NCBI GenBank assembly: GCA_000004985.1
Contig: GG738878.1
Origin: Naegleria gruberi
Lineage: Eukaryota
DNA: 64,000 nucleotides
Strand: one strand, 5' to 3'
Below the pieces are notes generated by a model. The model had not been told where the DNA came from. It made no database searches and was given only the letters and a program-made list of their open reading frames with translations. A program made the translations under genes and the position numbers. Of this stretch, positions 6,344 to 62,600 are shown piece after piece. How positions within the stretch are numbered: the stretch's first letter is position 1; every line of letters begins with the position of its first letter.

Positions 6344-7566
6344 TTAAACTTCAGTCTTGAGGTGAACAATTTCAGGACCAACTTCATCATATTGTTCCCT
6401 TGTAACACACAAATCAAAGAATGAAGACAAGGTAGCTCTAATACTGCCACCAATCCATGCCAATTGATCTCTCCTATCTCCTGCAACAATACGAATATCC
6501 ATTGAAGATGGTGCCTTCTCTGTCATTTCCTTTGTTAATCTCTCTTCAATACCTTCAAATTTTGTTGAACCACCAGCAAGAACTGAATTACGATACAATG
6601 TCTTACGAACGTCGATTGGTGAACGACTAATTGATTCAAACAAGAGTTCATGTATACCAGATGATTCCATACCAATAAGTTGAGGATAGAAGAGAACTTC
6701 TGGTGCACGGAATCTTTCAGAATTGATTGTAATTGCTGTACCATCAGGTAAGTTGTAAACTTGATCCAAAGATGAACTTTCCTCTGCTTTTTCCATTTCT
6801 TCATCATAATCCAATGGAATGTAACAGTGTTTTTCTTTCATTTGTCTAATAATTTCATGTTCGGCTGTTGTGTGGAAATTGTGGTCCTTTTCACTTAACA
6901 TTTTCATTAAATATTCTGTCACATCTCTTCCAGCAATATTCAATCGGAGTACAGCATGAAGCATGACTGTATTTTAATGAAAATCCAAGAAATTATAATC
7001 GAAACAATTATTCGAAACACAAAATCTATCAAAGGACATTATACAAATAAAAACATACCAAGACCATCATACATTGGAACACAATGAGCTGCACCATCAC
7101 CAACATCCAAACAAACACCTGTCAATCTACCAGAAGCCATCAATGACAATGCTCCTTGAATACCCAAATAAAAAGCAGGAACTTCAAACTTTTCCATTAA
7201 AATTTCACAAACTTTCTCACGTTGTACTTTTGGTGTGAAAGGAGCATCTGTTAATAAAAGTGGTTGTTCCTCAGGTGCTAATTTTAATTCATTGTAATAG
7301 GTGTGAGCAATAACAGATTCCCAGTGATCATAATTTTCAATTGTTCCGTGTACCATTGGATAGTCTAATTGCAAAACACCTCTCTTGGATTGAGCAGAAT
7401 GTCCAACATAATGTTCTCGGTTGACTGTACCAACAAGTACTGAAGTATCTTTTGCTTTACCAATCATATTGGAAAATACGGCACTTGGTGATTGATAACC
7501 AGCAACACCAGCTTTGATGAAGCCAGATCCATTATCGATAACTACTGTTGGAAGTTGTGATGCCAT
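6344..7566 (-). CDS. Actin-related protein (Arp1/centractin-like or divergent actin); 2 exons (7566..7059, 6966..6344), 92-nt intron
   Basis: Actin-fold motifs VVIDNGSGFIKAG, LTDAPFTPK, GVCLDVGDGAAHCVPMYDGL | VMLHAVLRLNIAGRD, GGSTKFEGI, WIGGSI. Intron GTATGT...ACAG at 7058..6967 joins track ORFs 7039..7623 and 6344..6964. Spliced length 377 codons. Confidence 0.75.
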
Positions 7567-14040: not shown

Positions 14041-14539
14041 GTGAAGTTTAAGCTTTCCAGATCCCCAGTTTGAAATTTTTCTCTCATCCCTTAGTAACAC
14101 TTTGAAAAGTTATAGAATAATATTCATTTCTTCAAACAACACGGATCAATCTTCAGTACTGAGATTGAAAGTATGAAAGAATGACTGTTGTTTCGGTTTC
14201 CTTGAGTTTAATCGAGTAAGGAAATTTCTGCTTCCGAAGATAAAAATAACATTCCGTATGAAATTCCGTGAGTTCCTTTCCTTCAATCACACATTAAGAA
14301 TTTGTGAGTTCTTCACTCAATCGACAAAAATAACTGCGCTTGTTGTGAGTACAAAGTATTGAGCACGTTCAAATTATTTTCCTTATCAAAACTATAAATA
14401 GATCATGTGAAAAATGTGAAAGCAAAACAATAAGAAAAAAAATTAATTAACATCAACAACTGGTCTACTTGTCAAATTTTGTGTACAAAATCTTAAGAAG
14501 TGTAAATAATACTACTAAATACCAATCAACCAAATCAAA

Positions 14540-15979
14540 ATGAGTTTCATCCACATTCCAATTTCTACTGCAGCTGCTTTCCAACCTCAACAACAAACTA
14601 TTCCAAGACAAGTTTCTTATCCAAATTTGAGAGAAACTTCATCATTCAATGATTATCCAACTCAAAATTTTGTAAATAATGTAACAAAAATTCCACTTTT
14701 GATTTCTCCACAAACAAGACAAGTTGAAAGAAATGTTCCATTCAAAATTTATGTTTTTGAAGGAAAATTCAATCACAATTTGAATAGTGCTTCAAATGTT
14801 TTGAGATTTGAAATTGATTCTAATCATGAGAGAAGTTTCGAATTATTTGATAGAGTTTTGAGAGAACATTCCATTGATAGGAGACAATTTGAATTACATT
14901 ATGTTGATGATGAAGATGATTTGGTTTCATTGACAAATTTAAGAGATTTCCAATTCATGTTGAAATTAATGAAAGGAAAATTGACCAAGATTATTTGTGA
15001 AAAGAAATCAATCAAATCACCACAACAACAAGCATATCCTCAACAATATCCTCAACAACATATTGCCTTCAATAGAATTTCACAAGCATCACCATCAGCA
15101 TGTTTATTTGCTCAATTCCAACAACCAAGAGTTGAATCTCAAAAGAAACAAGCTCCTCAACAACAAGCAGAACAATCTTGGGAAAATATGATTGAAAAGG
15201 CATTTAGATCTGCCTTCTCAAATGAAAATCCAACTCAACCAAAACAATCATTCTTTCCACAAGTTGCTGCTTCCACTCCTCAAACAAAACCAAAAGTGAG
15301 AAGAATTGAAATTAGTCTTTCTGATCTTTTGGGAATTCCAACAAGTAATGAAGCTGCTCAACAACCAGAAAAGGAAGAAACAAAGAAAGAAAAGAAGGAA
15401 AGTACTTCTACACCTCAATCATTCAGAGAATTATTACTTCAAAGAATGAAGGAAATGAGAGAAGAAGAGCAAAAGAGTCAACAATCACAAACTCAAGAAA
15501 AGAAACAAGAAGAGAAACCTATTCAAACTTCTCCAACTGCAATTGTTGTTTCTCAACCAAAAGAAGAAGAAGAACCAATTCAAGAACAAGTGAAGGAGAA
15601 AGAAATTGTTACTGAAAATACTCCAACTATGACCACTTCATTGCTTCTCTCCAATTTAATTGAAGATCAACCAACTGAATCAGTCGTTGAACAAGTTCAA
15701 CAAGAAACAATTGCTTCTCAAGAAGAAACAGAATCAGTGAATCAACAACAAGCTCAACAAGTTTCCAATCAAAATCTTGAAAATCAAGATCCAATTATTG
15801 AATCAATTCCTGAAGAAGAAGAAGAACCAGTTGTGAAAACAACCATTCCACACAAATATCAAAAAGAATTGAAATTATTGAATCAAATGGGTTTCACCAA
15901 TCATATTCTTAATATTACCTTATTGAATAGGTATGAAGGTGATATTCAAAGAGCCATCTCTGATCTCATTCATCAATAA
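14540..15979 (+). CDS. PB1 domain, low-complexity Q/E/P region, C-terminal UBA domain protein (p62/NBR1-like architecture, no ZZ finger)
   Basis: PB1-like FKIYVFEGKF...FELHYVDDEDDLVSLTNLRDFQFM. C-terminal UBA-like KELKLLNQMGFTNHILNITLLNRYEGDIQRAISDLI. Confidence 0.55.
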   Translation: MSFIHIPISTAAAFQPQQQTIPRQVSYPNLRETSSFNDYPTQNFVNNVTKIPLLISPQTRQVERNVPFKIYVFEGKFNHNLNSASNVLRFEIDSNHERSFELFDRVLREHSIDRRQFELHYVDDEDDLVSLTNLRDFQFMLKLMKGKLTKIICEKKSIKSPQQQAYPQQYPQQHIAFNRISQASPSACLFAQFQQPRVESQKKQAPQQQAEQSWENMIEKAFRSAFSNENPTQPKQSFFPQVAASTPQTKPKVRRIEISLSDLLGIPTSNEAAQQPEKEETKKEKKESTSTPQSFRELLLQRMKEMREEEQKSQQSQTQEKKQEEKPIQTSPTAIVVSQPKEEEEPIQEQVKEKEIVTENTPTMTTSLLLSNLIEDQPTESVVEQVQQETIASQEETESVNQQQAQQVSNQNLENQDPIIESIPEEEEEPVVKTTIPHKYQKELKLLNQMGFTNHILNITLLNRYEGDIQRAISDLIHQ

Positions 15980-26446: not shown

Positions 26447-27709
26447 TTAGTAGGTTCTTCTGTGAATAATTTGTGGTCCATAGTCATTGTAATCAGTTTT
26501 CTTAATCCACATTGAGCTGAATGAAGAAAGTGATGAAAGAACAGATGCACCATACCAAACAGCGTTAGAAGGATCTTTGGTTTCAACAAGACTGACAATT
26601 GTACTGGTTGTTGAAACTTCTTGAACTTCTATTCTCAATCTCTCAGCAAATGAGTTAATGCATGCAGTACCACCACAAACAATAATATTTGAGAACATTT
26701 CCTTCTTTGTATCAAATTCACATTGATTAGCACAATCGTGCAGAATATGTTGAATTCCTGGAATTTCAAATTCTCTTCCTGGGAGATGAACAGATGGATT
26801 AAAGAATATTTCTGTTGGTAAAAATCTTTCCTTTTGGCCAACAGAAACTTTTTTACCATCTGGTAATGTATAATCCTTATAATAGCTCACTTGATTGGCA
26901 GCACTCTTTGCTTTGGATTTCTTCTTGTCTGTTGTTTCGGCTTCTGAAGCTCCATTCAAAAGACTGTCCTCGGTTTTTTGTTTCAATTCTTGTGATAATT
27001 TCATTTGCTTGTGATATTCATAACCAGATGTGTAAACTAGCTTTCTTTTGATTTGTTCAATTACATTGGCATTAAATACAGTATTAAATTCATCAGGAGT
27101 CATGGAAGAAAATTCAGTATTAATCTTTAGAGTTTTTTGTGGTGCATCACCTTCGGAAGTGTCCATACTATTGTTACTATGTAATAATTGTTTTTGGAGA
27201 AGTGTTTTAAGATATTCATTAGCATGTTTTCCTCCTATATTTACAAAATCAGCTGCATGTGGGAAAGCCAATCCTTCATAAATTGGTGTAAATCTAGTTT
27301 GCTCATATCCAACATCGCACACTATACCAGTAATTTTTCCGCAACTATAAAGAGCCAAAAGACCTTGATTAGCAATAAAAAGGCCTGGTATTTCATATTG
27401 TTCAAACATGTGTTGTGTAATTCTTTCCGAATGTAATTTTGGAGCAAGAGTATGTTCAGACATGATGACAGACATATCAGTGGCTGGTCCATCCAACATA
27501 TCACCTTTTAGCATAGCCTTGTTAAATCCGTAACGCCAAACTCTGTCCATGGCATCAAAATTATTGATCAATCCTCTCTTCATTGGTGATTGATCATTAT
27601 AAAAAAAGGCAGGATCTTGAGTTTGATAGATATCAAGTGGAGCATCCTCACCAGACAAACCTATACGTGTCTCGTAGGTACCATTATCAATCACTACCGA
27701 TTTGCTCAT
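26447..27709 (-). CDS. Divergent actin-related protein (nuclear Arp class, Arp6-like)
   Basis: VVIDNGTYETRIG start. Actin-fold core (GIVCDVGYEQTRFTPIYEG, NIIVCGGTACINSF, VWYGASV). Insertion typical of nuclear Arps. Confidence 0.65.
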   Translation of the reverse strand: MSKSVVIDNGTYETRIGLSGEDAPLDIYQTQDPAFFYNDQSPMKRGLINNFDAMDRVWRYGFNKAMLKGDMLDGPATDMSVIMSEHTLAPKLHSERITQHMFEQYEIPGLFIANQGLLALYSCGKITGIVCDVGYEQTRFTPIYEGLAFPHAADFVNIGGKHANEYLKTLLQKQLLHSNNSMDTSEGDAPQKTLKINTEFSSMTPDEFNTVFNANVIEQIKRKLVYTSGYEYHKQMKLSQELKQKTEDSLLNGASEAETTDKKKSKAKSAANQVSYYKDYTLPDGKKVSVGQKERFLPTEIFFNPSVHLPGREFEIPGIQHILHDCANQCEFDTKKEMFSNIIVCGGTACINSFAERLRIEVQEVSTTSTIVSLVETKDPSNAVWYGASVLSSLSSFSSMWIKKTDYNDYGPQIIHRRTY

Positions 27710-27968
27710 TTTTTTTAATAATAAATAAAATTTTTATTTTTTTATAAATGATTTTGTGATGGCCAATAAGAAATAAACAAACAACACAAATTGCTTCCGA
27801 TTCTTTGGGAATCAATGAATTTATCATTTCATAAATTGATATGTGGAGAGTCGGTCCTATTGCATGTCTTTTATCAGACGGAAAATGATTTTTATTTTAA
27901 AACCCTAACTTGATTCGAGTATTTGCAAAATCAGAGAACTTGAAGGTTGAGAATAGCCGATAATCAAT

Positions 27969-28055
27969 GCGGGGATGAGTTTGGCTGGTGCTGAATGCAG
28001 CCTTCAAAGCTGTAGCTACTGTTCGGTAGAGAGGATCGATTCCTCCTTTCCCGCG
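27969..28055 (+). tRNA. tRNA-Sec: Selenocysteine tRNA (tRNA-Sec, anticodon UCA), 87 nt, 9/4 acceptor/T-stem fold, long variable arm
   Basis: GCGGGGATGAGTTTGGCTGGTGCTGAATGCAGCCTTCAAAGCTGTAGCTACTGTTCGGTAGAGAGGATCGATTCCTCCTTTCCCGCG. The 9-bp acceptor stem has one U:U mismatch. The anticodon loop cUUCAAa reads UCA. The T-arm is a 4-bp stem plus ATCGATT loop. Near-colinear with human tRNA-Sec as recalled from memory. Confidence 0.8.
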
Positions 28056-28062
28056 TACTGTC

Positions 28063-28067
28063 TTTTT
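28063..28067 (+). terminator. RNA polymerase III T-run terminator downstream of tRNA-Sec
   Basis: TTTTT begins 8 nt after the discriminator base. Confidence 0.45.
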
Positions 28068-28075
28068 ACTTTTTC

Positions 28076-30025
28076 CTAGTAGTAATGGTCCAAATATTCT
28101 GGATAGTGGATTGGAATGGGATGATCTGGAGCATAAGTGATGCCAGAAATGACATGGGTTAAGGCATTCATACTTTTGATATCAAGCATTTTGATTTTCA
28201 AATTTCGTTCTGGACAGTTCAATAAATGTTCTTCCAAATCTTGTGTTGTACATTCTGTTTTACAACATGGACAAGTGGCTAGAGTCCTTACTGTCTTCTT
28301 ATGGACAATATCAGAAAGGGTGTGAAAATCTTTAAAGTGCTGAGGAATGGCATGTCTTGGCAATGTTTTAAAACATCCAGGACAAATAACTTTAGAGTTT
28401 TGTAGAGCTAATTTGAAGGACTTGCGTTGCTCAATAATTGTATTAATATCTTGGTCGTAATCAATCTCAGGCAGAGAGCTATCATTTTCAATAATTGGTT
28501 TGAATTTGAAATCGATTTGTGGAATTGTTTTAAGTTTGGTGATGGTCTCTTGCGACATTAAAGGTAATCTCTTCAATGAAACCCAACACTTTCTCGATGT
28601 ATCATCAAGAACTGCAATCAGGAGACTTTCATTTTCAAAAACGTCCATATATGGGAATTCAAATAGTATTTTGGTTAGTTTCTTATTTCTCAAGAGAGTG
28701 GAAATTAATTCAAAGTAACTGGATTCATATTGTTTCTTATGTTCATAAAATGAAATCTTAATTGTTGTCAGATTGGACAATCTCGACAATGCATTTTTAA
28801 CAAGGAGTGCATCTTTTGATATTACATTTTCCAATACCAGATTTTTCACATTTTCACATCCTTCAATAAGTGAATTCAGCTTAATTTTAGAGCATGCATC
28901 TCCTATTTTTCTAAGATAAAGATCCTCAATCCTGCTTCCCAAACCCGAAAAATCAAGTGCACAAGACCTTCCAAACAATGTGATGAATCCAAATCCCAAT
29001 GTTAATCGTTTCAGCCTTGGACTGTATCTAATATAGTCACAGAGTTTATCCAGTGCTTCTTGAACTTCGCTCATTTGAATTGTGGAATAGATATCATTTG
29101 GATAAATGTTAATTTCAACTGATTCATGGTCCTTATCTATGACAACTTTGGAAAATAATGAATTAAAATCTCTGACGCTCATATCTGGTAGTCTGATACT
29201 CTTGCATGAGGTATAGAAAATTTCAGAGTCTACTGGAAATAGATCAGTATATTCGGAAGAATAATTTCCAAACGGAACAAACCCATCTGTAAAAAACGAA
29301 TAATGGAAGTGGCATGAATTGTTGAAATACTCAACCAGAGAATTATCAACAACTACAATTTTGGCATTACATATTAAATCAGTCAGGTATCTTTGTGCTG
29401 AAATATTCGATAAGGACACCATCTGCACATCCTTACAAACCTCTGCAAGTAATTTAAACGTATCTGAATCTACTAGTTCATTGAGCATGTCAAAGCATGA
29501 ACTCAGTGATGATTCAGAAAGTGTCAACCGTCTAAGAGCTGGCTCTGATAAACTGTTTGGAAAATAGCTGTCAAAATTAGCCAACCTCTTACAGAACTCT
29601 TCAGTTTCTCTCTGTGATCTATTTGCAATAAAGACATTATCATTATTTCCTTGTATATTCTTCAAAAATCCAAATTGTTTCCTACAAATTACATCCCCAA
29701 CTTGTCCATTCATGAATAAATGTTTAATTGTCATTCCATTTGCTTTCACAAATTTAATCACATATCTAATGAAGGGAAGCAAATTTAATTGAACATTATT
29801 ATTAAAATCATCATGAATATTTGTCAATGGCTTGTTGGTTGTATGTTCTTGGTCATTCAACTCAACATTCGGATACAAATGAAGAGTTTGCAATTTTTCA
29901 ATAATCAATCGTCTCCAAACCGAGCATACATGAGGAATCACTCTTATTAATTGATGAAAATCAATAAATGGAAACAATCGATAGAAAGCAACCTCTTCCG
30001 GCACTTGATCATGAAAATTAATCAT
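28076..30025 (-). CDS. F-box-like protein with LRR-like middle and C-terminal Cys/His zinc-finger region
   Basis: N-term FYRLFPFIDFHQLIRVIPHVCSVWRRLI. C-term CPGCFKTLPRHAIPQHFKDFH...CPCCKTECTTQDLEEHLLNCPE. Confidence 0.45.
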   Translation of the reverse strand: MINFHDQVPEEVAFYRLFPFIDFHQLIRVIPHVCSVWRRLIIEKLQTLHLYPNVELNDQEHTTNKPLTNIHDDFNNNVQLNLLPFIRYVIKFVKANGMTIKHLFMNGQVGDVICRKQFGFLKNIQGNNDNVFIANRSQRETEEFCKRLANFDSYFPNSLSEPALRRLTLSESSLSSCFDMLNELVDSDTFKLLAEVCKDVQMVSLSNISAQRYLTDLICNAKIVVVDNSLVEYFNNSCHFHYSFFTDGFVPFGNYSSEYTDLFPVDSEIFYTSCKSIRLPDMSVRDFNSLFSKVVIDKDHESVEINIYPNDIYSTIQMSEVQEALDKLCDYIRYSPRLKRLTLGFGFITLFGRSCALDFSGLGSRIEDLYLRKIGDACSKIKLNSLIEGCENVKNLVLENVISKDALLVKNALSRLSNLTTIKISFYEHKKQYESSYFELISTLLRNKKLTKILFEFPYMDVFENESLLIAVLDDTSRKCWVSLKRLPLMSQETITKLKTIPQIDFKFKPIIENDSSLPEIDYDQDINTIIEQRKSFKLALQNSKVICPGCFKTLPRHAIPQHFKDFHTLSDIVHKKTVRTLATCPCCKTECTTQDLEEHLLNCPERNLKIKMLDIKSMNALTHVISGITYAPDHPIPIHYPEYLDHYY

Positions 30026-32258: not shown

Positions 32259-35200
32259 TTATTTGTGGTCTAACTTTTGTTTCATCATATCAATGAGCAT
32301 ATCAGAGTATTTCTCCAAAATATCCTTCGTTGAAGCTGCATTAATTTGCCAAGCTTTAGAAGAAAATGTAGCAGACATATTCTGCAGCAGTTTTGCAATA
32401 GCTTCTTTTGATTTGTTGATGGCTTCTACGTCCTTATTTTCTGAGTTATCCATATGGTCAATTATTGAGAGAGCATGAGTAAAAGAATGGGAAATTTGGT
32501 TGAGTTTAAGTACAAGGGTTAGTGGAATATCAGACATGTTTGGAATACTTTCAGTGAGATTAATTCTAGATGTGGTCAAATCGTTAGATGGTAATGTTGG
32601 TTGATTTGATGAGGCAGTAGTTGTGGTAGTTGTAGGGATTGAATGGTTATTGATTGTGGTGGAAGATGATGCTGTTGAGGAACTTTGGGTAGATGAAGGT
32701 TGGAGAGGTGGAAGATGATTGGTTTTTGGGAGTGGTTTTGGAGGCTGCTTTGATGGTTGACCAATGGCCTTTTTCAAAAATTGTGAGGTGACACTAATTC
32801 TTCCATCACCCAAAGGTGCTTCGAAAGGAGCAGAAAGACTTTCAAAATTCTTCATTAAGAAATCCTCTTGTACCTTTGGTTTTTCAGGAGGTTCCATTTC
32901 AAGCTTAATTACTGCAGTCTTTTCATCTTCATCATCTGACTCTTGTACGAGCTTGTCTTGAGATACCTTGTTGGCTGCCCTCACTAGGAAATCTGGAGAT
33001 TGTTCAGTATTGAAATAGACTACATCTTCCTCTACTGGATCGTCTGCTTCGTCATTAGAACTTGTTTCATCCTCTATAGCAGCTAATTTAAATTCTTTCT
33101 CATCTGCTCTATCTAACCATTTACTATTCTGAGGCTTTGATTCTACAGAGTTTAGGATTGCATTGATTTCATCACTTGTTTTGGTTTTCTTTTGTTTTGC
33201 CCATAATGGTAGTAATGTATCACGTGTTGATAACTCGACAGTGTGTTGAGGACTTTCAGGCATGAGATTTTTTGGTAATATGCTTTCGAATGGCTTATTC
33301 TTATTCAAAAGTTTGGTAATGTTAGGGGAGAGTCTCCACACAAAAATACATCCATCCCCTGATACTGAGATGATTCTTTTAGAGTCTTTGGAAAATTTTA
33401 CACCAGTTATGATTTCTGAATGACCACATACTCTCGATAAGCATTCACCTGTCTGCAAGTTGTAAAGCCTGATATATTTATCAGCAGAGCTGATAACAGC
33501 AAACTCTCCAGAATAGTCGCAACAAACTCTGATAGGTTCAGCTGATGGAAGATAGCTGTCAGCGGTTGATCTAGTGTCAACCTTAAAGCTTTGTTTAGAT
33601 TTGCACTTGTCTAACTCCCAAACACTAATCTTCTTATCCTGTCCAACTGATACAATTTCGTTTGTCTTGCTTACATCCAAATCAAAAATGGTTCCATTCG
33701 ATTGACTATTTTGATATCTTCTGAAAGTATATTCACCATTTGGATCTCTTTCAATCTTTCTAAATACAATAGATTTATCAGCACTGCAGCTGATAAGATA
33801 TCTGAAATTTTCATCCTTTGTAAATCTCACAGAAGTAACAGATGCCGTATGATCATCAAGGGAGGTTACCAATTTGAATAAGGAATTCTTGTATTGGAAA
33901 ATGTGAATAAGTCTATCTCTGCTACTTGTAGCAAATAGGATATCTGTAGAATCTTCAGGGTTCACACTAAAATCCATAGATAAAATTTCAGAGTCGTGAG
34001 CTACTTCAGAATATTCAATGGAAAAGTTTGTTGTTTGAAATATTTTGAGAACACCTTGTCTACTTCCGCAACCTATAAGATTACCATCCTCAGAAAACCT
34101 CACACTTCTTATTCCTTGTTCTCCATTAGGATTTGAAGGTTTATCCTCAATTGCGTGTAGCAAGTCCTTACAGAAAACATTTTTAGAAATGAAAGACTCT
34201 CCTCTTTCAATCTTTTCAGTGAGAGAAGTACTAGCTTCCACATTCCAAACTCTAACAGTATTATCACTCGAACAAGTAACAAATGATCCATGAGGTAAAA
34301 GTGAATTATTTTCAGGAAATAGATCAATATCCCAAATAGAATCACTGTGAGAAAGGAAACTTCTGTACTTGGCTATTCTTTGCAAATTACTAATGTCCCA
34401 AATAAAGAAGGATCTGTCACTGTAGACTGCACATACCTGTCGTGAATCAAGAAGTCTGCAAGCCACACAATTAATATCGTTTGAGTAGGACATTCCAGTG
34501 GTTAGTGGTGGTTTTGGTAATGTGCATTTGAATTTAAGGCTGGTTGGCTCAAACAGACGAACTGTTCCATTTGCACATCCACAACAAATAATATCTTCAT
34601 TGACACTAAGCGAGAATGCTGCTTTAACTTTCATATCCAGCCATTTAAGAATCTGTCTATTTTCGTTTAGTAAACACAAAATTCCATCCGAATTAACTGT
34701 ATACACCCCAGTTGACCCATCCTTGTGTTTCACTATATCAACACTAACAAAATTAGATTCCTTAAAATTCCCCAGAATACACCTAGATGTTTTTACCTCC
34801 ATACTACCATTTGGTTGTTGTTCAATTTGATGATATTTTACAAACTTGTCTCCAACTGTTACAAAAAATGCTCCATCATGTGAAAATGCAACATCATTGG
34901 TCTTTGGAATATCAGTAAATCTAATTATTCGAATTGAATACTTACCTTTCTAATATTTTTGATAGTATGTACAAGACTTCCTTTTTGAGAAGAAGCAGAA
35001 GATAATGTTGAAGCGTTAACACTTTGATTCATATTGGCAGAGAGATCCCACAACTTGATGGTACCATCATTTTCATCCCCAACACTGACAATATATTTTG
35101 CATCATTTGAAAATGCTAAAGAAGTAATTCCATATGAATGATTATCTTTCTTGAGCTCTATAGTTTTCTTTCCTGTTAAAACATCCCATATTACAATAGA

Positions 35201-35593
35201 TGGTTTTGATCCTTTTTCACCTGCTGCCAATAGTTTCCCATTCCTACTGAATTGAAGACAAGAGAAGGTTTTGTTTGATGATGAATTTTGTAAGAATTGA
35301 TATTGTTTGTTCTTTCTTGGATTGTAGCAAACTACCACATTTGCCGAACAATAGGCAACATATTTTGTTTGTGGATGAACTGAAAGCTTTGAATTAGAGT
35401 CGGTTGTTAAACCAATAATTTTTTCCAAAGTTATTCTAGAGCCACCCGATTGTGATGGTTGTGAATTTGATGATGCAGCTACACTTTGTTTTCGCTTCTT
35501 TGATGATTGACTAATGGATCCGCTACCACTTTGTGTGATCGTTCGTTTCAGAGAGGTTGGAGTGGCAGAAGGATGCGGTTGAGGACCAATCAT
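32259..35593 (-). CDS. WDR62: WDR62/MAPKBP1-family WD40-repeat protein (~1096 aa); 2 exons (35593..34946, 34901..32259), 44-nt intron
   Basis: Strong colinearity with WDR62/MAPKBP1 (HGSFVTCSSDNTVRVWNV; SSRDRLIHIFQYKNSLFKLVTSLDDHTASVTSVRF; CSADKSIVFR; GHSEIITGVKFSKDSKRIISVSGDGCIFVWRL; LPLWAKQ). GTAAGT donor at 34945 and acceptor ccaaag at 34902 restore ...NIRK|TNDVAFSHDGAFFVTVG. Confidence 0.85.
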
Positions 35594-38689: not shown

Positions 38690-40216
38690 ATGTTGCACGC
38701 TTTCCACAAGCCTCTGCAAGTAAACAGAAATGGAACACAAATATTCCTATTGTTGTGTACAAAAAAGAAGCCGATAGCAACAAGAACGTTCGCGAATACT
38801 TTTATATTGTCCTCGTCGGTTCCTTCTAAAGAGTTGTTGTGGAACAAGAACATTTCCATTGATGATAAAATTAAATTCTACAGAACATTTAAAACAAATA
38901 ATCATGATTTATTGGAAATGATTGACATTTGCTTGCTGGTGGCAAATTGTTGTTCCATGATGAAGAGTGAGAAGGAATTTAAAGAGTGTTTATTGGATTT
39001 AAAAAGTTATTGTTCACAATTAAGCGATCAAACAGAAAAAAAAGTGAATGAAAAATCATGGAATTTTATAATTCAACATTTTTGTAAAGAACAAACATTT
39101 CATTCCTATGCCATTTATCTATTTAAAAGAGTTATGCAAGAGAAACAATTAGCATGTCCCAATTTATTTACATTAACTGCCATACTTAAAGTTTGCTCTG
39201 TAGGTAATACCCAAGTTGAATTTTGTGAACAAATTGTTAATGAATTAGAGCAACATGGCGCAATGAATGTATTTTTATACACTCACTTTATTAATAATTG
39301 TATTTGGAATGATGATTTGGAAAGAGCATTAGCAATTGTGTTGAATATGAAAGGCAAAGATATTGAACCAAACTATGCAATTTATATCCCACTTTTAAAA
39401 GCAGCCACTGTTAAGAAAAACATTCAAGTTGGAATGACACTTTACCAACTTGTAAAAAAGAGTAATTTAGCAAGTCCTCAATTATCAACGACAATTATAT
39501 CATTTGCATTGAAATTAAGAAAACCAGAGTTGGTAATAGAAGAAATTGAATTAGTGAAACAACAAAAATGGATGACAATCATAACATGGAATAGTTTAAT
39601 TCAAGCATATATTCAAGAGAACAATATTAAGAAAGCGATTGATGTTATTCATGAAATGAAAGATAATGGTATTTGTCCAGATTCGGCAACTTTTAACATT
39701 CTCATAACAGCTTGTGCTAATACCAAGTTATTTGCAGAAGGAAAGTTGATTCACAAAATTACAACTAACACTTTGAAAGATAATTGCTCTGTTGAACTAT
39801 TGACATCCATTATTAATTTTTATACAAAATGTGGACATCCAGAGATTGCAATCAACGAATGTGAAAAGATGAAATCAAAGGGATTAATGAATGTTGTTTC
39901 TTTTACATGTCTAGTTGAAGCATACATTCAAATAAATGAAATACAAAAAGCCATCGACACAGTTACTGAAATGAAACAATTCAAGGTTACTCCAAACGCT
40001 ACCACATTCTCCATTTTGCTTACCGCATGCGCTAAGTTGAAATTATATAAGGAGGGAATATTGATTCACAAAATTGCAAATAATACTTTGAGAGATAATA
40101 GCTCTCTTAAACTTTTGACATCAATTATTAATTTTTACACAAAATGTGGACATCCAGATATTGCAATTAATGAATGTAAAAAGATATCAAAAAGTATTAT
40201 GGATGGAATTGTTTAA
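38690..40216 (+). CDS. PPR (pentatricopeptide repeat) protein, N-terminal part with mitochondrial-presequence-like start; frame lost at ~40190 and continues in ORF 40273..43038
   Basis: MLHAFHKPLQVNRNGTQIFLLLCTKKKPIATRTF presequence-like. Then 35-aa PPR motifs (ITWNSLIQAYIQENNIKKAIDVIHEMKDNGICPDSATFNILITACAN...). Ends where a 13-nt deletion relative to sister repeats shifts the frame. Confidence 0.6.
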   Translation: MLHAFHKPLQVNRNGTQIFLLLCTKKKPIATRTFANTFILSSSVPSKELLWNKNISIDDKIKFYRTFKTNNHDLLEMIDICLLVANCCSMMKSEKEFKECLLDLKSYCSQLSDQTEKKVNEKSWNFIIQHFCKEQTFHSYAIYLFKRVMQEKQLACPNLFTLTAILKVCSVGNTQVEFCEQIVNELEQHGAMNVFLYTHFINNCIWNDDLERALAIVLNMKGKDIEPNYAIYIPLLKAATVKKNIQVGMTLYQLVKKSNLASPQLSTTIISFALKLRKPELVIEEIELVKQQKWMTIITWNSLIQAYIQENNIKKAIDVIHEMKDNGICPDSATFNILITACANTKLFAEGKLIHKITTNTLKDNCSVELLTSIINFYTKCGHPEIAINECEKMKSKGLMNVVSFTCLVEAYIQINEIQKAIDTVTEMKQFKVTPNATTFSILLTACAKLKLYKEGILIHKIANNTLRDNSSLKLLTSIINFYTKCGHPDIAINECKKISKSIMDGIV

Positions 40217-41850
40217 TTCAAGCATATATTCAAAATAAGGAAGTTCGACAGGCAATTGAAATAATCACAGAAATGCAAGATTATGGTGTTGAACCAAACT
40301 CTACCACTTTTAACATTTTACTCACAGCGTGTGCTGATTCAAAATTGTTTGAAGAAGGAAAGGCAATTCACAAACTTGCAACTGGCACCTTGAAAGATTA
40401 CTCTTCTGAACTTTTAGCATCTATTGTCAACTTTTACACAAAATGTGGACATCCAGAAACAGCCATTAAGGAATGTGAACAATTGAAATCGAAAGGATTA
40501 ATGAACAATATTGTTTGGAATTGTTTAATTCAAGCATATATTCAAAATAAGGAAGTTCGACAGGCAATTGAAGTAATCACAGAAATGCAAGATTATGGTA
40601 TTGAACCAAACTCTACCACTTTTAACATTTTACTTAAAGCATGTGCTGATTCAAAATTATTTGAAGAAGGTAAATTACTGCATCAAGCATCTGGTCAAGT
40701 GCTCAATAATCCTACAATAGAGTTGAACAATAGTATAATTAATTTTTACACAAAATGCGGACATCCAATAATAGCTATTGATCAATTTGAAAAGATGAAA
40801 ACCAAAGGATTTGAGGCAAATGTTATTACTTGGACGTGTTTAATTCAAGCACACGTTCAAAATAAGGAAGTTCGACAGGCAATTGAAGTAATCACAGAAA
40901 TGCAAGATTACGGTATTGAACCAAACTCTACCACTTTTAACATTTTACTCACAGCGTGTGCTGATTCAAAATTATTTGAAGAAGGTAAATTGATTCACGA
41001 ACAAGCAATAGAAAATGTTAAAGATTGCTCTACTGAACTTTTGACATCAATTATTAATTTTTACACAAAATGTGGACATCCAGAAACTGCCATAAAGGAA
41101 TGTGAAAAATTGAAATTGAAGGGATTAATGAACAATGTTGCTGTTTGGAATTGTTTAATTCAAGCACATATTCAAAACAATGAGGTCCAAAAGGCAATTG
41201 AAATAATCACAGAAATGCAACAATTTGGATTGAACCCTGATTCTACAACCTATACTATTATACTTAAGGCATGTACTGATTCAAACTTGTTTGAAGAAGG
41301 GAAGTTTATTCATGAACAAGCAATAGAAAATGTTAAAGATTGCTCTACTGAACTTTTGACATCAATTATTAGTTTTTATACAAAATGTGGACATCCAGAG
41401 GTGTCAATTGGAGAATGTGAAAAATTACAATCGAAGGGATTAATGAACAACATTGCTGTTTGGAATTGTTTAATTCAAGCACATATTCAAAATAACGAAG
41501 TTCAAAAATCAATTAAAATAATCACAGAAATGCAAGATTATGGTATTGAACCAAACTCTACCACTTTTAACATTTTACTCACAGCGTGTGCTGATTCAAA
41601 ATTATTTGAAGAAGGAAAGGCAATCCACAAACTTGCAACTGGCACCTTGAAAGATTACTCTGCTGAACTTTTAGCATCTATTGTCAACTTTTACACAAAA
41701 TGTGGACATCCAGAGGTTTCAATTGAGGAATGTGAACAATTGAAATCAAAGGGATTAATGAACAATGTTGCTATTTGGAATTGTTTAATTCAAGCACATA
41801 TTCAAAATACAACAAATACCCAAAACCCATCTACAATAGAATATGGACTG
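39590..41850 (+). repeat. Tandem array of ~7-8 near-identical ~315-bp units (each = 3 PPR motifs) inside the PPR-DYW gene
   Basis: Unit boundaries at the recurring string ggaattgtttaattcaagcacatattcaaaat at ~39590, 40205, 40515, 40830, 41145, 41460, 41775. Inter-unit DNA identity visibly >85-90%. Confidence 0.7.
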
Positions 41851-43038
41851 AACAAAGCAATGGTGGTTTTTAATGAGATGAAGGAACATATTGAACCCGA
41901 TAAGATAACCTACCTCATATTGTTGGCTGGATGTGGAGAATATGTTGCGAGAAAGATGGGACTGGATATTATTGATGAACTCAAACTAAAAGGAATGGAT
42001 GTTCATGAGGAGATAGTCAGTGTTATGATCTACTTTTATTCAAGAATTGCTTATCAATCAACTGCACAACAACTATTTGAAAAGCTTGTCGAAGAATCAG
42101 CCCAAAAACGTCTATCCATCATAACATATAATAACATGTTGTCATGTTACGCTCAACATGGAAAAGGAACACAAGCCATGAATTTATTTAATGAAATGGT
42201 TGATAAGAACGTTGAAATGAACGAGCAAACATTCACAATCATGCTGAACACATTTTCACATTGTGGAATGATTGATGAGGCGAATCAACTTTATGGAGAA
42301 ATGAAGACAAAATACAACCATAATCCATCAGTAATTGTAGACTGTGTAATGGTTGATGTCTTTGCCCGTTCAGGAAGATTTCATGAGGCAGAAAAAATAA
42401 TTAACGAAAGAATGAATTATTCTTTGTGGAGTGCTCTACTGGCAGGATGTAGAAAGTTCAATAATGTTGAGCTTGGTGAAAAGGTTTTTAAAATATTGCT
42501 TAGTATTGATGAAAAAAAAGCTCCACCATATATATTATTATCGAACATTTATACTTATTATGGGTTGAATGAAAAAGCTGACAATATAAGACAATTAATG
42601 ATTGAAAATGGAATTAAAAAGATACCAGGAATTGTGTATCAGGAAGAAGATGGTAAATCATACCAATTTGTTTCTGGATCAAAAAAATATGAAAGATTTA
42701 AGGAAATTGAGAAAATGAGAGAGGAGATTTACAGAAAAATAATCCAAGCTGGTTTTGAGCCAGATACTAGATGGGTAACTAACTCAAAATTATTAACTGA
42801 AGAAGAAAAATTAGATTCACTTTGTAGACATGCTGAGAAGACAGCAACAGCTCATGCATTTGTTTTGAATCCAAAGAGAAAATCAATTATTTTAGCGGCA
42901 AATCTTCGTGTTTGCAATGATTGTCATACTGCCACAGAATTCATTTCAAAAGTGATGGATGTTGAAATAATTATTAGAGATGCAAATAGATATCACCATT
43001 TTAAAGATGGTAAATGTAGTTGTGACGGATATTGGTAA
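40273..43038 (+). CDS. PPR-E-DYW protein (plant-type organellar C-to-U RNA editing factor); in-frame coding continues upstream to ~40203, so probably the same gene as 38690..40216
   Basis: ~20 PPR motifs followed by an E domain and canonical DYW deaminase end: HAEKTATAHAFVLNPKRKSIILAANLRVCNDCHTATEFISKVMDVEIIIRDANRYHHFKDGKCSCDGYW. Confidence 0.8.
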   Translation: MQDYGVEPNSTTFNILLTACADSKLFEEGKAIHKLATGTLKDYSSELLASIVNFYTKCGHPETAIKECEQLKSKGLMNNIVWNCLIQAYIQNKEVRQAIEVITEMQDYGIEPNSTTFNILLKACADSKLFEEGKLLHQASGQVLNNPTIELNNSIINFYTKCGHPIIAIDQFEKMKTKGFEANVITWTCLIQAHVQNKEVRQAIEVITEMQDYGIEPNSTTFNILLTACADSKLFEEGKLIHEQAIENVKDCSTELLTSIINFYTKCGHPETAIKECEKLKLKGLMNNVAVWNCLIQAHIQNNEVQKAIEIITEMQQFGLNPDSTTYTIILKACTDSNLFEEGKFIHEQAIENVKDCSTELLTSIISFYTKCGHPEVSIGECEKLQSKGLMNNIAVWNCLIQAHIQNNEVQKSIKIITEMQDYGIEPNSTTFNILLTACADSKLFEEGKAIHKLATGTLKDYSAELLASIVNFYTKCGHPEVSIEECEQLKSKGLMNNVAIWNCLIQAHIQNTTNTQNPSTIEYGLNKAMVVFNEMKEHIEPDKITYLILLAGCGEYVARKMGLDIIDELKLKGMDVHEEIVSVMIYFYSRIAYQSTAQQLFEKLVEESAQKRLSIITYNNMLSCYAQHGKGTQAMNLFNEMVDKNVEMNEQTFTIMLNTFSHCGMIDEANQLYGEMKTKYNHNPSVIVDCVMVDVFARSGRFHEAEKIINERMNYSLWSALLAGCRKFNNVELGEKVFKILLSIDEKKAPPYILLSNIYTYYGLNEKADNIRQLMIENGIKKIPGIVYQEEDGKSYQFVSGSKKYERFKEIEKMREEIYRKIIQAGFEPDTRWVTNSKLLTEEEKLDSLCRHAEKTATAHAFVLNPKRKSIILAANLRVCNDCHTATEFISKVMDVEIIIRDANRYHHFKDGKCSCDGYW

Positions 43039-59136: not shown

Positions 59137-59453
59137 ACACATTTAAAATTTGAAAATCAACCACAGTTTCTGAACTGTACTTATTATCAGATTTATCCCA
59201 TTTCTTATTTTAATATCTTTTATCTTCTCTAAAGAGATCCGTTGCAGCCTTACTTTGAAAATTTCAAAAAAATTAATAAATTAAAAAATGGAGCACAACA
59301 CACAGGTGAAAACACGTGTTTGGTGGCACTCTACTCTATTCAATCTGTATTCCCTGAGACTGGTATTAATCTCCGATATGCTACTTTCAAAATATGGGTG
59401 ATTTGTGAATTATGTCATAGTTGACTCGATGTGTGGTCTTTTTTAAAAACAAA

Positions 59454-62400
59454 ATGAAAAACTGTTATTTTGGTGATATTGTGATTGTGTGTGTTGATGA
59501 AGATGGTGATGGTGATGATCATTATTCGGAGGCTGGATATGAATTATTACAAAACCACTTAGATAGTGTAGCATGGGAAAGAGTGGAGAGGAATGAAAAG
59601 ATTTATGATCATATGGAGAGTCTAATGAAACCCTATATTTGGTCAGGTTTGGAATATATTGAGAAAAATCCATTTCCAGACAATGATTGTAAATTGGTGT
59701 TTTATAGAGTGTTGAAGAAATTTGGAGAGTTATTGGAAATGGCTTCAGATGCTATCAAGTGTGATGAACGGTTGGTTCTTAAGGCTGTTAAAAGTAAACC
59801 TTCCTCTTTGCAATTTGCAAGTTTGGAATTGAGATCAAACAGAGAGTTTGCATTGAAAGTTGTTTCGTTTAAGACTCTTCATAGTGGTTCTCCATTTGAA
59901 TTTTTGGAGAATTTTCATGGTGATTATGAAATAGCATTGTTAGCTGCCAAACAATATGGAATGGCATTGGAGTTTGTTGCACCAAAGTTGAGAAATAACA
60001 GAGATATCATACGTGAAGCAGTGGAAAATAATGGATGTGCACTACAATTTGTCCCTGAACAATTAAAAGATAGAAGCTTAGTATGGAGTGCTTTAGATTC
60101 ATATTGCAAGTTTGAATTTGTACCAAAAGAAATGGAGAATGATAGAGAAATTTTACTTAAAGCTGCCTTACATTCAAATTTGAGCAGAATTCCAGACTTA
60201 TTTCACAGTGACAGAGAATTCGTTCTTGAACTTGTAAAGAGAGATGGATGTTTATTACAACATCTTCCAATAGAGTACCAACAGGATAGATTATTTGTAT
60301 TGGAAGCTGTAAAACGGAACCCTTTTTATTTAGCTGAGGCAAGTGATGAATTTAGAGGTGACAGGGAAATTGCTTTGATTGCTTTTCGGAAAAATCCGGA
60401 TGTATTTCAATATATTTCAAATAACTTGAAAAATGATAGAGATTTCATATCAAGCTTGATATTGAATGGATATGACCTGTATAGATTACAACGGTTTGGT
60501 GTTGCACTAGCCAACGATCGAGATTTCATTTTGAGTGCGATGGATAATTGGCTTGACTTTTCAAATTTTATGGATATGGAAAATACTTACAGGTCAGACC
60601 TGGAATTATGTAAAAAACTTATCAAACTATATCCTGATTGCATACGTTATACACTATGTGAAGAACTGAAACATAACAAAGAATTAGTAATGAGCTTATT
60701 ACCTCATAGTTTGGAAATACTTGAAGACATACCAGACGAGCTGAAGAATGACAGAGAATTTATTCAATACGCATTACGGTTGCATGACAAGTCATTACAG
60801 TATGCGTCGGACGAGCTGAAGAATGATAGAAGTTTGGTAATGGAAGCCATAAAATACGATAGCAATAACTTTATCTTTGCTTCTGACGAATTGAAAAATG
60901 ACAGACAAATTGTAGACTATATTATTCTTCAAAATGCATCTTTAATTGAATTTGCCTCCAAGTCCATTAGAAATGAAAGAGAAATTGTATTGAAAGCTAT
61001 CAAAAATTCATTTACTGATATTTCTCAATTTTTAGGTTATGAAATTATGGAAGAAAGAGAAATAGTCTTGGAGTGTGCTAAAAGGTTTGGAGGTTTGGAG
61101 CATCTTATAACCGAGTTTAGAAATGATAGAGAAATTGTTCGACATGTTATTCAAAATAATAAGGGTGAACAGCTTACTTATGCATCTGAACATTTACGCA
61201 AGGATCGAGAAATGGAGCTAATTGCAGTAAGGAATGGGCTGAGTTTGAAGTATGTCCATAACAAAATAGACAGGGAAATTGTATATGCTGCCGTAAATCA
61301 CTATGAAAGAAACGTTAAATATATACCAGATGAATTCATGAATGATGAGGAAATTATCTTACTATCTGCTAATTATCGTAATTGTTTAGATTACACTGGA
61401 GAACAATTGAAATCAAATAAGGAATTTATTAGAAAATTGATTTCAAAAAATGGTTGTTTATTATCAGATGTAGCAAGTGAGCTGAAGGATGATAAAGAAG
61501 TTGTGATGGATGCTGTGACTTCAAATGGCTTATCACTACAGTTTGCTTCACAATCAATGAAAGAGGATAAGGAAATTGTTTTGTCAGCTGTAAAATCCGA
61601 TGGACAAGCTCTGTCCCACGCCCCTGATCATTTTAAAAATGATAGAGAAATGATAATTTCTGCAGTTGATCATGGGTTTGCGGAATTTGATCATGATTAC
61701 ACTGCAGATAGAGAAATAGCACTAAAGGTAGTGAATAGGGATATTTTTTATTTCGAATACACAAAGGAACTGAGAATGGATAGAGATTTCATATTACAAA
61801 TAGAAAATCCAAATTTCTCCCTTTTATCAATTTCCCCTAAATTAAGAAATGATAGAGAAATAGCTTTTAAGGCGTTGGACATGGATGGGAATGCTTTATT
61901 GTACGTCTCTGACGAGTTGAAGAATGAATTTAAAAACGATCGAGAAGTATTGTTAAGAGCAATTGGAACTAATCAAATAGCATTTGTTTGTGCCTCAGTT
62001 GAGTTGCAAAATGATGAAAAGTTTGTATTAGATTCGGTCTCAGTGAATGGAATGGTATTGAGATATTTACCACTCAAATTCAAGGATAATAGACAAGTTA
62101 TTTTGAAAGCTGTTCAAAATAATGGTTGGGCACTCTTTTACGCACCATCAGAATTACTTCAGGATAGAGAAATAGTAATGAATGCCATAAAGAATACTGG
62201 TACTTCATTGGAATATGCTCCTTTCGAATTTAGAAACGATAAGGAAATTGTTTTAGAGGCAATTAAAACCAATGTGGAATCTTTACAATCGGCTTCATAT
62301 GAATTACGGAATGATGAGGAATTTATTTCACAAGCTATGGATATTGATATTGAATCTCTTCAATATGCCAATTATTCACTGAGATATAATATTGATTTTC

Positions 62401-62600
62401 TTACAAGAATGAATAAGGAAAATAGGATTATTCAAGGAGCATCAGAACAGTTACAAAAAGTTATTGACATGAATGGATTACTACAACAATTCAAGCAGGA
62501 GACAACTAGCAAAATCTACAACTTCAATCCCATTACTTTATGGACAATTTCAATTTTATTAGTGGCTTTATGTTGTGGAATCAAATTATATAATATTTGA
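59454..62600 (+). CDS. Tail-anchored protein made of ~30 tandem ~30-aa DUF4116-like repeats (LKNDREIVLxAVKxNGxALQYAS)
   Basis: Repeats such as ELKNDREFIQYALRLHDKSLQYASDELKNDRSLVMEAIKYDSNNFIFASDELKNDRQIV. Single C-terminal TM ITLWTISILLVALCCGIKLY. Start taken as first ATG (MKNCYFGD). Track ORF begins at alternative start 59421. Confidence 0.55.
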   Translation: MKNCYFGDIVIVCVDEDGDGDDHYSEAGYELLQNHLDSVAWERVERNEKIYDHMESLMKPYIWSGLEYIEKNPFPDNDCKLVFYRVLKKFGELLEMASDAIKCDERLVLKAVKSKPSSLQFASLELRSNREFALKVVSFKTLHSGSPFEFLENFHGDYEIALLAAKQYGMALEFVAPKLRNNRDIIREAVENNGCALQFVPEQLKDRSLVWSALDSYCKFEFVPKEMENDREILLKAALHSNLSRIPDLFHSDREFVLELVKRDGCLLQHLPIEYQQDRLFVLEAVKRNPFYLAEASDEFRGDREIALIAFRKNPDVFQYISNNLKNDRDFISSLILNGYDLYRLQRFGVALANDRDFILSAMDNWLDFSNFMDMENTYRSDLELCKKLIKLYPDCIRYTLCEELKHNKELVMSLLPHSLEILEDIPDELKNDREFIQYALRLHDKSLQYASDELKNDRSLVMEAIKYDSNNFIFASDELKNDRQIVDYIILQNASLIEFASKSIRNEREIVLKAIKNSFTDISQFLGYEIMEEREIVLECAKRFGGLEHLITEFRNDREIVRHVIQNNKGEQLTYASEHLRKDREMELIAVRNGLSLKYVHNKIDREIVYAAVNHYERNVKYIPDEFMNDEEIILLSANYRNCLDYTGEQLKSNKEFIRKLISKNGCLLSDVASELKDDKEVVMDAVTSNGLSLQFASQSMKEDKEIVLSAVKSDGQALSHAPDHFKNDREMIISAVDHGFAEFDHDYTADREIALKVVNRDIFYFEYTKELRMDRDFILQIENPNFSLLSISPKLRNDREIAFKALDMDGNALLYVSDELKNEFKNDREVLLRAIGTNQIAFVCASVELQNDEKFVLDSVSVNGMVLRYLPLKFKDNRQVILKAVQNNGWALFYAPSELLQDREIVMNAIKNTGTSLEYAPFEFRNDKEIVLEAIKTNVESLQSASYELRNDEEFISQAMDIDIESLQYANYSLRYNIDFLTRMNKENRIIQGASEQLQKVIDMNGLLQQFKQETTSKIYNFNPITLWTISILLVALCCGIKLYNI

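Follow-up and report, generated by a model that had tools for sequence, protein, structure and literature searches.

Positions 27969-28055 on the + strand of the window, as we call the whole 64-kb stretch of Naegleria gruberi DNA analysed here, are a genuine eukaryotic-type (9/4) tRNA-Sec gene, recognized by two independent detectors and supported by covariation with 40 other genes. With a probability of about 0.93, this is the nuclear tRNA[Ser]Sec (SelC) gene of N. gruberi; judging from its sequence, its product would enter the standard Sec pathway and the gene would be transcribed as an autonomous RNA polymerase III (Pol III) unit. The anticodon is UCA, and CCA is not encoded.

ARAGORN called a tRNA-SeC(TCA) of 87 nt at 27969-28055(+), the only tRNA that it found in the 64-kb window. 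The window was also scanned with 4227 Rfam families at gathering thresholds, and a single match was obtained, to RF01852 (tRNA-Sec), at 27969-28054. It covers model positions 1-91, end to end, with 69.8 bits (E 3.2e-12), above the curated RF01852 gathering score of 47, so that the covariance model for eukaryotic tRNA-Sec accepts the sequence. Within the Rfam clan the tRNA-Sec model won, and no match to RF00005 (general tRNA) was kept. A preliminary description of this DNA had proposed an 87-nt eukaryotic tRNA-Sec of 9/4 structure with anticodon UCA; ARAGORN, RF01852 and the covariation presented below agree on this, and the full-length match to RF01852 establishes the Sec-type fold by covariance model. 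In single-sequence folding the minimum free energy was only modestly better than that of shuffled sequences (z = -2.36); tRNAs normally behave in this way, and such folding is not the test that matters here.

The acceptor stem has 9 bp in the sequence and in the Rfam structure line, as first described. Its 5' strand (GCGGGGAUG, 27969-27977) pairs with 28046-28054, and the 3' strand CUUUCCCGC together with the discriminator occupies 28046-28055. The pairs are, in order, G-C, C-G, G-C, G-C, G-C, G-U, A-U, U:U and G-C. The U:U mismatch (U27976:U28047, acceptor pair 8) is the single pair flagged as non-canonical by Rfam. The discriminator is the G at 28055 (G87 in the gene, G73 in canonical numbering). 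The D-arm (27980-27995) has a 6-bp stem, UUUGGC/GCUGAA, and a 4-nt loop, UGGU, in the Rfam structure line, and is supported by covariation. ARAGORN and Rfam both place the anticodon arm at 27996-28014, with a 6-bp stem and the 7-nt loop CUUCAAA (C-U-UCA-A-A), in which the anticodon TCA lies at 28004-28006. The long variable arm (28015-28030) is of the serine type; its 5-bp stem CUACU/GGUAG and 4-nt loop GUUC span 28016-28029 in the Rfam structure and the stem is supported by covariation. The T-arm (28031-28045) has a 4-bp stem, GAGG/CCUC, and the 7-nt loop AUCGAUU. The D-arm, the anticodon loop, the long variable arm, the 4-bp T-stem and the ATCGATT loop had all been read correctly from the letters. 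In conclusion, the canonical hallmarks of eukaryotic tRNA-Sec are present: UCA anticodon, 9/4 structure, 6-bp/4-nt D-arm, long variable arm and G73. The tRNAscan-SE 2.0 paper gives the special fold, the UCA anticodon and G73 as the canonical features of tRNA-SeC (PMC8450103), and the Naegleria gene has all three.

Comparators were obtained by scanning JGI metagenome contigs with the anticodon-arm pattern TGCAGNCTTCAAANCTGTAG, which yielded at least 120 loci. ARAGORN called a tRNA-SeC in most of the loci listed, and these contained 53 distinct sequences. Alignment A1 consists of the window gene and 40 distinct 87-nt environmental tRNA-Sec genes; no gap was needed across the 41 sequences. The identity of the Naegleria gene to the comparators was 56-72%, with none above 72% among the matches listed, and a Naegleria-specific DNA pattern gave 0 matches in the JGI metagenomes. 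When the 9/4 cloverleaf was applied to A1, 95.7% of the cells were paired, compared with 40-47% when the 3' partners were slid by 1-3 columns. Compensatory (two-sided) changes were observed at 21 of the 30 pairs, and none of 500 shuffles reached the observed pairing and covariation values.

The compensatory changes were spread over the molecule: 6/9 pairs of the acceptor (helix 1), all six pairs of the D-stem (helix 2, with 99.2% of cells paired), all five of the variable stem (helix 4) and 3/4 of the T helix (helix 5). Acceptor pair 8:79 was unpaired in 41/41 sequences; the U:U mismatch is therefore a conserved feature of the family. The mismatch had been noticed from the start, under the label '8:65'; the label is idiosyncratic, and gene numbering makes it 8:79. 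All sequences of A1 have G73. In the anticodon stem the search pattern dictated five of the six pairs, which are thus uninformative, but the closing pair 33:41 was free on both sides; it is complementary in all 41 sequences, as C-G in Naegleria and as G-C or A-U in the comparators. Similarly, pair 12:27 is U-A in Naegleria and C-G or A-U in the comparators, so that the compensatory pairs 12:27 and 33:41 are contributed by the Naegleria gene itself. Near-colinearity with human tRNA-Sec, as claimed in the preliminary description, is supported indirectly, through the gapless alignment to 87-nt tRNA-Sec genes. Some of these 87-nt comparators are, we presume, vertebrate-like.

Several arrangements were seen in the environmental loci. 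In four of them a tRNA-Arg(CCG) lies 12-14 nt upstream of the tRNA-Sec, on the same strand, which suggests a dicistronic tRNA-Arg/tRNA-Sec unit in some lineage of uncultured eukaryotes. In five others the tRNA-Sec is inside a very dense tRNA cluster. Six environmental tRNA-Sec genes have CCA directly after G73; an encoded CCA is unusual for eukaryotic nuclear tRNA genes, and it may be due to chance or be a lineage feature. Finally, one contig (Ga0105211_1000127) matches the tRNA-Sec anticodon arm twice on one strand, at a distance of about 5 kb, so that tRNA-Sec would be duplicated in that organism.

Signals expected of a Pol III gene were looked for in and around the tRNA-Sec gene. The T-arm contains a B-box-like sequence, GGATCGATTCC, at 28033-28043, which matches 10/11 positions of the consensus GGTTCGANNCC. 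Six matches of this quality, this one included, were found on both strands of the window; four of the others, at 40295-41552(-), were discarded because they are the antisense of PPR repeats. No acceptable A box was found in the gene, the best candidate having three mismatches; a missing A box is usual for tRNA-Sec. Downstream, two T5 runs form a putative Pol III terminator at 28063-28067 and 28070-28074 (+), starting at +8 and +15 from the gene end. The first had been reported, correctly, as a T5 8 nt downstream, and its role as a Pol III terminator is a reasonable reading; the second run had been overlooked. In this AT-rich window the probability of a T5 within a 12-nt stretch is 0.024-0.038, and that of two T5 runs within 20 nt is 0.001-0.003 (0.1-0.3% of window positions).

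Upstream, a spacer of 259 bp (27710-27968) is shared with the divergent gene of an actin-family protein. It contains an A/T block at about -79 to -67, but no TATA box between -40 and -15, compared with a TATA at -29 to -33 in 13 of the 39 environmental tRNA-Sec genes examined among the loci listed. No PSE-type element could be recognized from the sequence alone; its recognition calls for comparison with Naegleria snRNA promoters. Of the two elements of the vertebrate-type (type 3) Pol III promoter, a TATA at -30 and a PSE near -70, the TATA is thus missing here. The promoter type would therefore differ from that of metazoans, since the gene is devoid of TATA, compared with the 13/39 environmental genes and with the TATA, PSE and AE required in vertebrates. 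Because it is on the + strand between two genes on the - strand, the tRNA-Sec gene cannot be part of the sense transcripts of its neighbours. The 10/11 B box, the two T5 runs and this antisense orientation together suggest autonomous Pol III transcription: the transcript would be made from an internal B box and end at the T5 runs at +8/+15, with no TATA at -30. A T5 run terminates Pol III on the human tRNA-Sec (Aeby et al., 2010; PMC2943599).

The T-loop AUCGAUU departs from the other genes at one position. Position 54 (A28035) is an A in Naegleria and a T in 40/40 comparators from the loci listed; relative to the canonical T54-Psi55-C56-R57-A58 T-loop, position 54 deviates and the other four are canonical. 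A54 is also the one position at which the B box departs from its consensus. Since the anticodon arm was the sole criterion by which the comparators were chosen, the comparison of T-loops is free of bias; it covers lineages that share this anticodon arm, whereas trypanosomatids and Dictyostelium, among others, have different anticodon stems. A54 occurs in, and is tolerated by, eukaryotic initiator tRNAs, and is therefore compatible with both the T-loop fold and transcription by Pol III. T54 is a conserved rather than a defining feature of the eukaryotic tRNA-Sec family. Deviant B boxes have been reported in lineages with other anticodon stems, such as trypanosomatids and Dictyostelium (Aeby et al., 2010; PMC2943599).

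The gene lies in a gap that was said to be 366 bp long, and this figure is exact, from the ATG of the ORF at 26447-27709(-) to the stop of the ORF at 28076-30025(-). The identities first given to these two neighbours were not supported. The upstream one (NAEGRDRAFT_50297, 26447-27709, -) had been described as Arp6-like. It encodes a divergent actin-family protein for which Pfam gives Actin alone (7.5e-78), its best PDB matches are conventional actins and not Arp6, and its best matches beyond Heterolobosea are to ordinary actins, which are about 28% identical to it; the Arp6-like label is therefore unsupported. The downstream neighbour (NAEGRDRAFT_69401, 28076-30025, -) is a predicted protein of 649 aa, identical to XP_002675438.1 and without a Pfam domain. 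It had been called an F-box protein, and no Pfam F-box was detected at E<=10 with either the whole protein or its N-terminal 70 aa; the N-terminus is F-box-like by eye only. Altogether, five of the long ORFs in the window encode proteins identical to RefSeq entries of N. gruberi NEG-M on a 395,411-bp scaffold, including SBDS (XP_002675436) and eIF4E (XP_002675343), which identifies the window as DNA of this strain.

The stop codon of NAEGRDRAFT_69401 (TAG, 28078-28076, -) is 20 nt from the 3' end of the tRNA-Sec gene (+), so that any 3' UTR longer than 20 nt would traverse the tRNA gene in antisense. Past the tRNA, the - strand has its first AATAAA near 27895, which would give an overlap of convergent Pol II and putative Pol III transcription.

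The conservation of this location was examined at the loci of the actin-family orthologue, with 10-kb flanks, in N. fowleri (VFQX01000012), in a Naegleria-like contig from ENA (k141_113984) and in Willaertia magna. No tRNA-Sec was found beside the orthologue in any of the three. As it is absent from these loci and from a fourth one (L124), the insertion site would be lineage-specific. The sole homologue of NAEGRDRAFT_69401 that was found is on a contig of 2.1 kb whose sequence stops 42 nt after the stop codon, and no tRNA-Sec 3' end is present there. Parts of the cluster of SBDS, eIF4E and actin-family genes are shared across Naegleria; the ENA contig has the actin-family gene in inverted orientation, and N. 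fowleri has a tRNA-Arg(TCT) at 14499-14572 of its locus, between ORC5-like and SBDS genes.

An independent assembly of the locus was also sought. Two contigs from ERR1078381 (PRJEB11402) encode an eIF4E identical to that of N. gruberi; both stop inside the actin-family gene, short of the tRNA. The same sample contains a homologue merely 49% identical to the 649-aa neighbour, which suggests N. gruberi-like DNA in this sample, accompanied either by a second heterolobosean or by a paralogue.

Other ORFs of the window deserve a brief mention. The ORF at 40273-43038(+) encodes a PPR protein of 921 aa, which carries an E motif and, at its C-terminus, a DYW deaminase domain (PF14432, 3e-33); a second PPR gene precedes it at 38690-40216(+). 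This PPR-E-DYW layout is the architecture of plant-type RNA-editing factors; both DYW-PPR proteins and C-to-U editing in mitochondria have been reported from N. gruberi. A 1059-aa ORF at 59421-62600(+) consists of 17 DUF4116 repeats (E 2e-204). The adjacent ORFs at 32259-34802(-) and 34925-35593(-) each match WD40 domains of MABP1/WDR62; they probably represent two exons of a single gene with an intron of about 120 bp between them. Similarly, the 206-aa ORF at 6344-6964(-), which matches the C-terminal half of actin only, is probably another intron-split gene.

Three other explanations were weighed against the Pol III-transcribed SelC gene. A real tRNA-Sec could be transcribed by RNA polymerase II, as in Trypanosoma brucei, and processed from a longer transcript. 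We consider this very improbable. Naegleria and trypanosomatids are both Discoba, the T. brucei tRNA-Sec is a Pol II product and the Naegleria gene is tightly packed between two Pol II genes, but it is antisense to both and has no ride on their sense transcripts. The absence of a TATA box at -30 and the single B-box mismatch would also fit Pol II; on the other hand, trypanosome tRNA-Sec genes are devoid of A and B boxes whereas the Naegleria gene keeps 10/11 B-box positions, and its T5 runs at +8 and +15 are improbable by chance. To our knowledge, Naegleria does not use a polycistronic mode of transcription. Pol II use was proposed to be a derived trypanosomatid trait tied to polycistronic transcription, and Pol III transcription of tRNA-Sec to be ancestral (Aeby et al., 2010; PMC2943599). 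The gene of Naegleria, a non-kinetoplastid discoban, is consistent with the ancestral Pol III mode and with a derived Pol II mode in trypanosomatids.

The two remaining explanations bear on the gene itself. A decayed, non-functional tRNA-Sec pseudogene, with the working gene elsewhere in the genome, is hardly plausible: A54 departs from the T of 40/40 comparators and the location is not conserved in relatives, but A54 is tolerated in eukaryotic initiator tRNAs, all stems are intact with a lone non-canonical pair that is the universally conserved one, and the differences from other tRNA-Sec genes are compensatory. The score is also 23 bits above the Rfam threshold, and both a terminator and a B box are present. 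A gene that has nothing to do with selenocysteine, whether an opal suppressor or tRNA-Ser-like, or a tRNA-like fold arisen by chance, is scarcely conceivable. Long variable arms are found in tRNA-Ser and tRNA-Leu as well, but the 9-bp acceptor, the 4-bp T-stem and the 6-bp/4-nt D-arm are specific to tRNA-Sec. The folding z-score of -2.36, taken alone, is modest; against it stand the win of the tRNA-Sec model in its clan, with no RF00005 match kept (E 3e-12), and the Sec system published for N. gruberi. A functional SelC gene transcribed by Pol III is thus the reading that we retain.

At the level of sequence and structure, the tRNA-Sec gene carries every determinant of the established eukaryotic Sec pathway. 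The long variable arm and G73 are determinants for SerRS, and the 6-bp/4-nt D-arm and the 13-bp acceptor/T helix are determinants for PSTK, SepSecS and EFSec. The transcript would be charged with serine by seryl-tRNA synthetase through its long variable arm and G73. PSTK would then phosphorylate the serine, yielding phosphoseryl-tRNA-Sec, which SepSecS would convert to the selenocysteine form with selenophosphate supplied by SPS2. Finally, EFSec and SBP2 would deliver Sec to UGA codons in mRNAs that carry a SECIS element in their 3' UTR.

PSTK, SepSecS, SPS2, EFSec, SBP2, a candidate SelC gene and a TR3-like selenoprotein have reportedly been described in N. gruberi, according to the abstract of an earlier study. 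The SelC candidate of that study may be the locus 27969-28055. The study has the Sec machinery of N. gruberi as its subject (da Silva et al., 2013). The N. gruberi SPS2 is fused to a methyltransferase domain, and a NifS-SPS fusion is also present (Mariotti et al., 2015). The large thioredoxin reductase of Naegleria has been described as Sec-containing (Leitsch et al., 2021, citing da Silva et al.). The 65 curated eukaryotic tRNA-SeC training sequences of tRNAscan-SE 2.0 come from its references 49-60, da Silva et al. included (PMC8450103). The preliminary description had deduced from the tRNA a UGA-to-Sec recoding system and a selenoproteome in this organism, in agreement with this literature (da Silva et al., 2013; SPS2; Sec-containing thioredoxin reductase). 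In conclusion, the tRNA-Sec finding is correct but already known, because the Sec trait has been published for N. gruberi.

The 64-kb window itself contributes no further component: no selenoprotein or Sec-machinery Pfam family was found among its 33 long ORFs, no long ORF contains a lone in-frame TGA flanked on either side by coding potential, and none of the ORFs terminates at a TGA within a C-terminal context resembling that of TrxR.

Annotators can take the gene as a sign that N. gruberi decodes Sec, and that gene models ending at UGA, for example that of the large thioredoxin reductase, may be too short. The gene is found automatically by standard tools (ARAGORN, Infernal/Rfam, tRNAscan-SE 2.0). 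Its residual value is comparative, as a data point from a non-kinetoplastid discoban and as a rare A54 T-loop variant. The only items that are mildly new are this A54 variant and the TATA-less, double-terminator, antisense architecture of the gene. It is conceivable, though in our view unlikely, that they define a distinct heterolobosean tRNA-Sec variant, with an initiator-like A54, a TATA-less B-box-dependent promoter and a tight double terminator. If this were true, A54 could change the tertiary contacts between T-loop and D-loop or the modification pattern, or could act as a discrimination signal between EFSec and eEF1A, and the architecture of the gene would be a record of the ancestral Pol III state from which, within Discoba, the trypanosomatids switched to Pol II.

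Compared with known systems, the Naegleria gene is closest in form to eukaryotic tRNA[Ser]Sec (RF01852; for example human TRU-TCA), with which it shares the length of 87 nt without gaps, the UCA anticodon, the 9/4 fold, the acceptor U:U mismatch, the 6-bp/4-nt D-arm, the long variable arm and G73. Its anticodon arm TGCAGNCTTCAAANCTGTAG is common to at least 120 environmental eukaryotic loci. It differs from the eukaryotic comparators in having A54 instead of T and a C-G pair closing the anticodon stem, and from vertebrate genes, which require TATA, PSE and AE, in the absence of a TATA at -30. The terminator starts at +8 in Naegleria, whereas 45 nt separate the human gene from the first T4 downstream of it. 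The tRNA-Sec genes of T. brucei are likewise from Discoba and lie in a short spacer between protein-coding genes; however, they are devoid of A and B boxes and, as sense-oriented members of a Pol II polycistron, are transcribed by that polymerase (Aeby et al., 2010; PMC2943599). The Naegleria gene, in contrast, is antisense to its neighbours and has a near-consensus B box and oligo-T terminators, so that neither trait of the trypanosomatid Pol II genes, sense placement in a Pol II unit or lack of a B box, is observed. With bacterial SelC it has in common the UCA anticodon, a long variable arm and a role in UGA-to-Sec decoding; bacterial SelC combines an 8-bp acceptor with a 5-bp T-stem (PMC8450103), whereas the Naegleria tRNA has the 9/4 structure that is supported by covariation.
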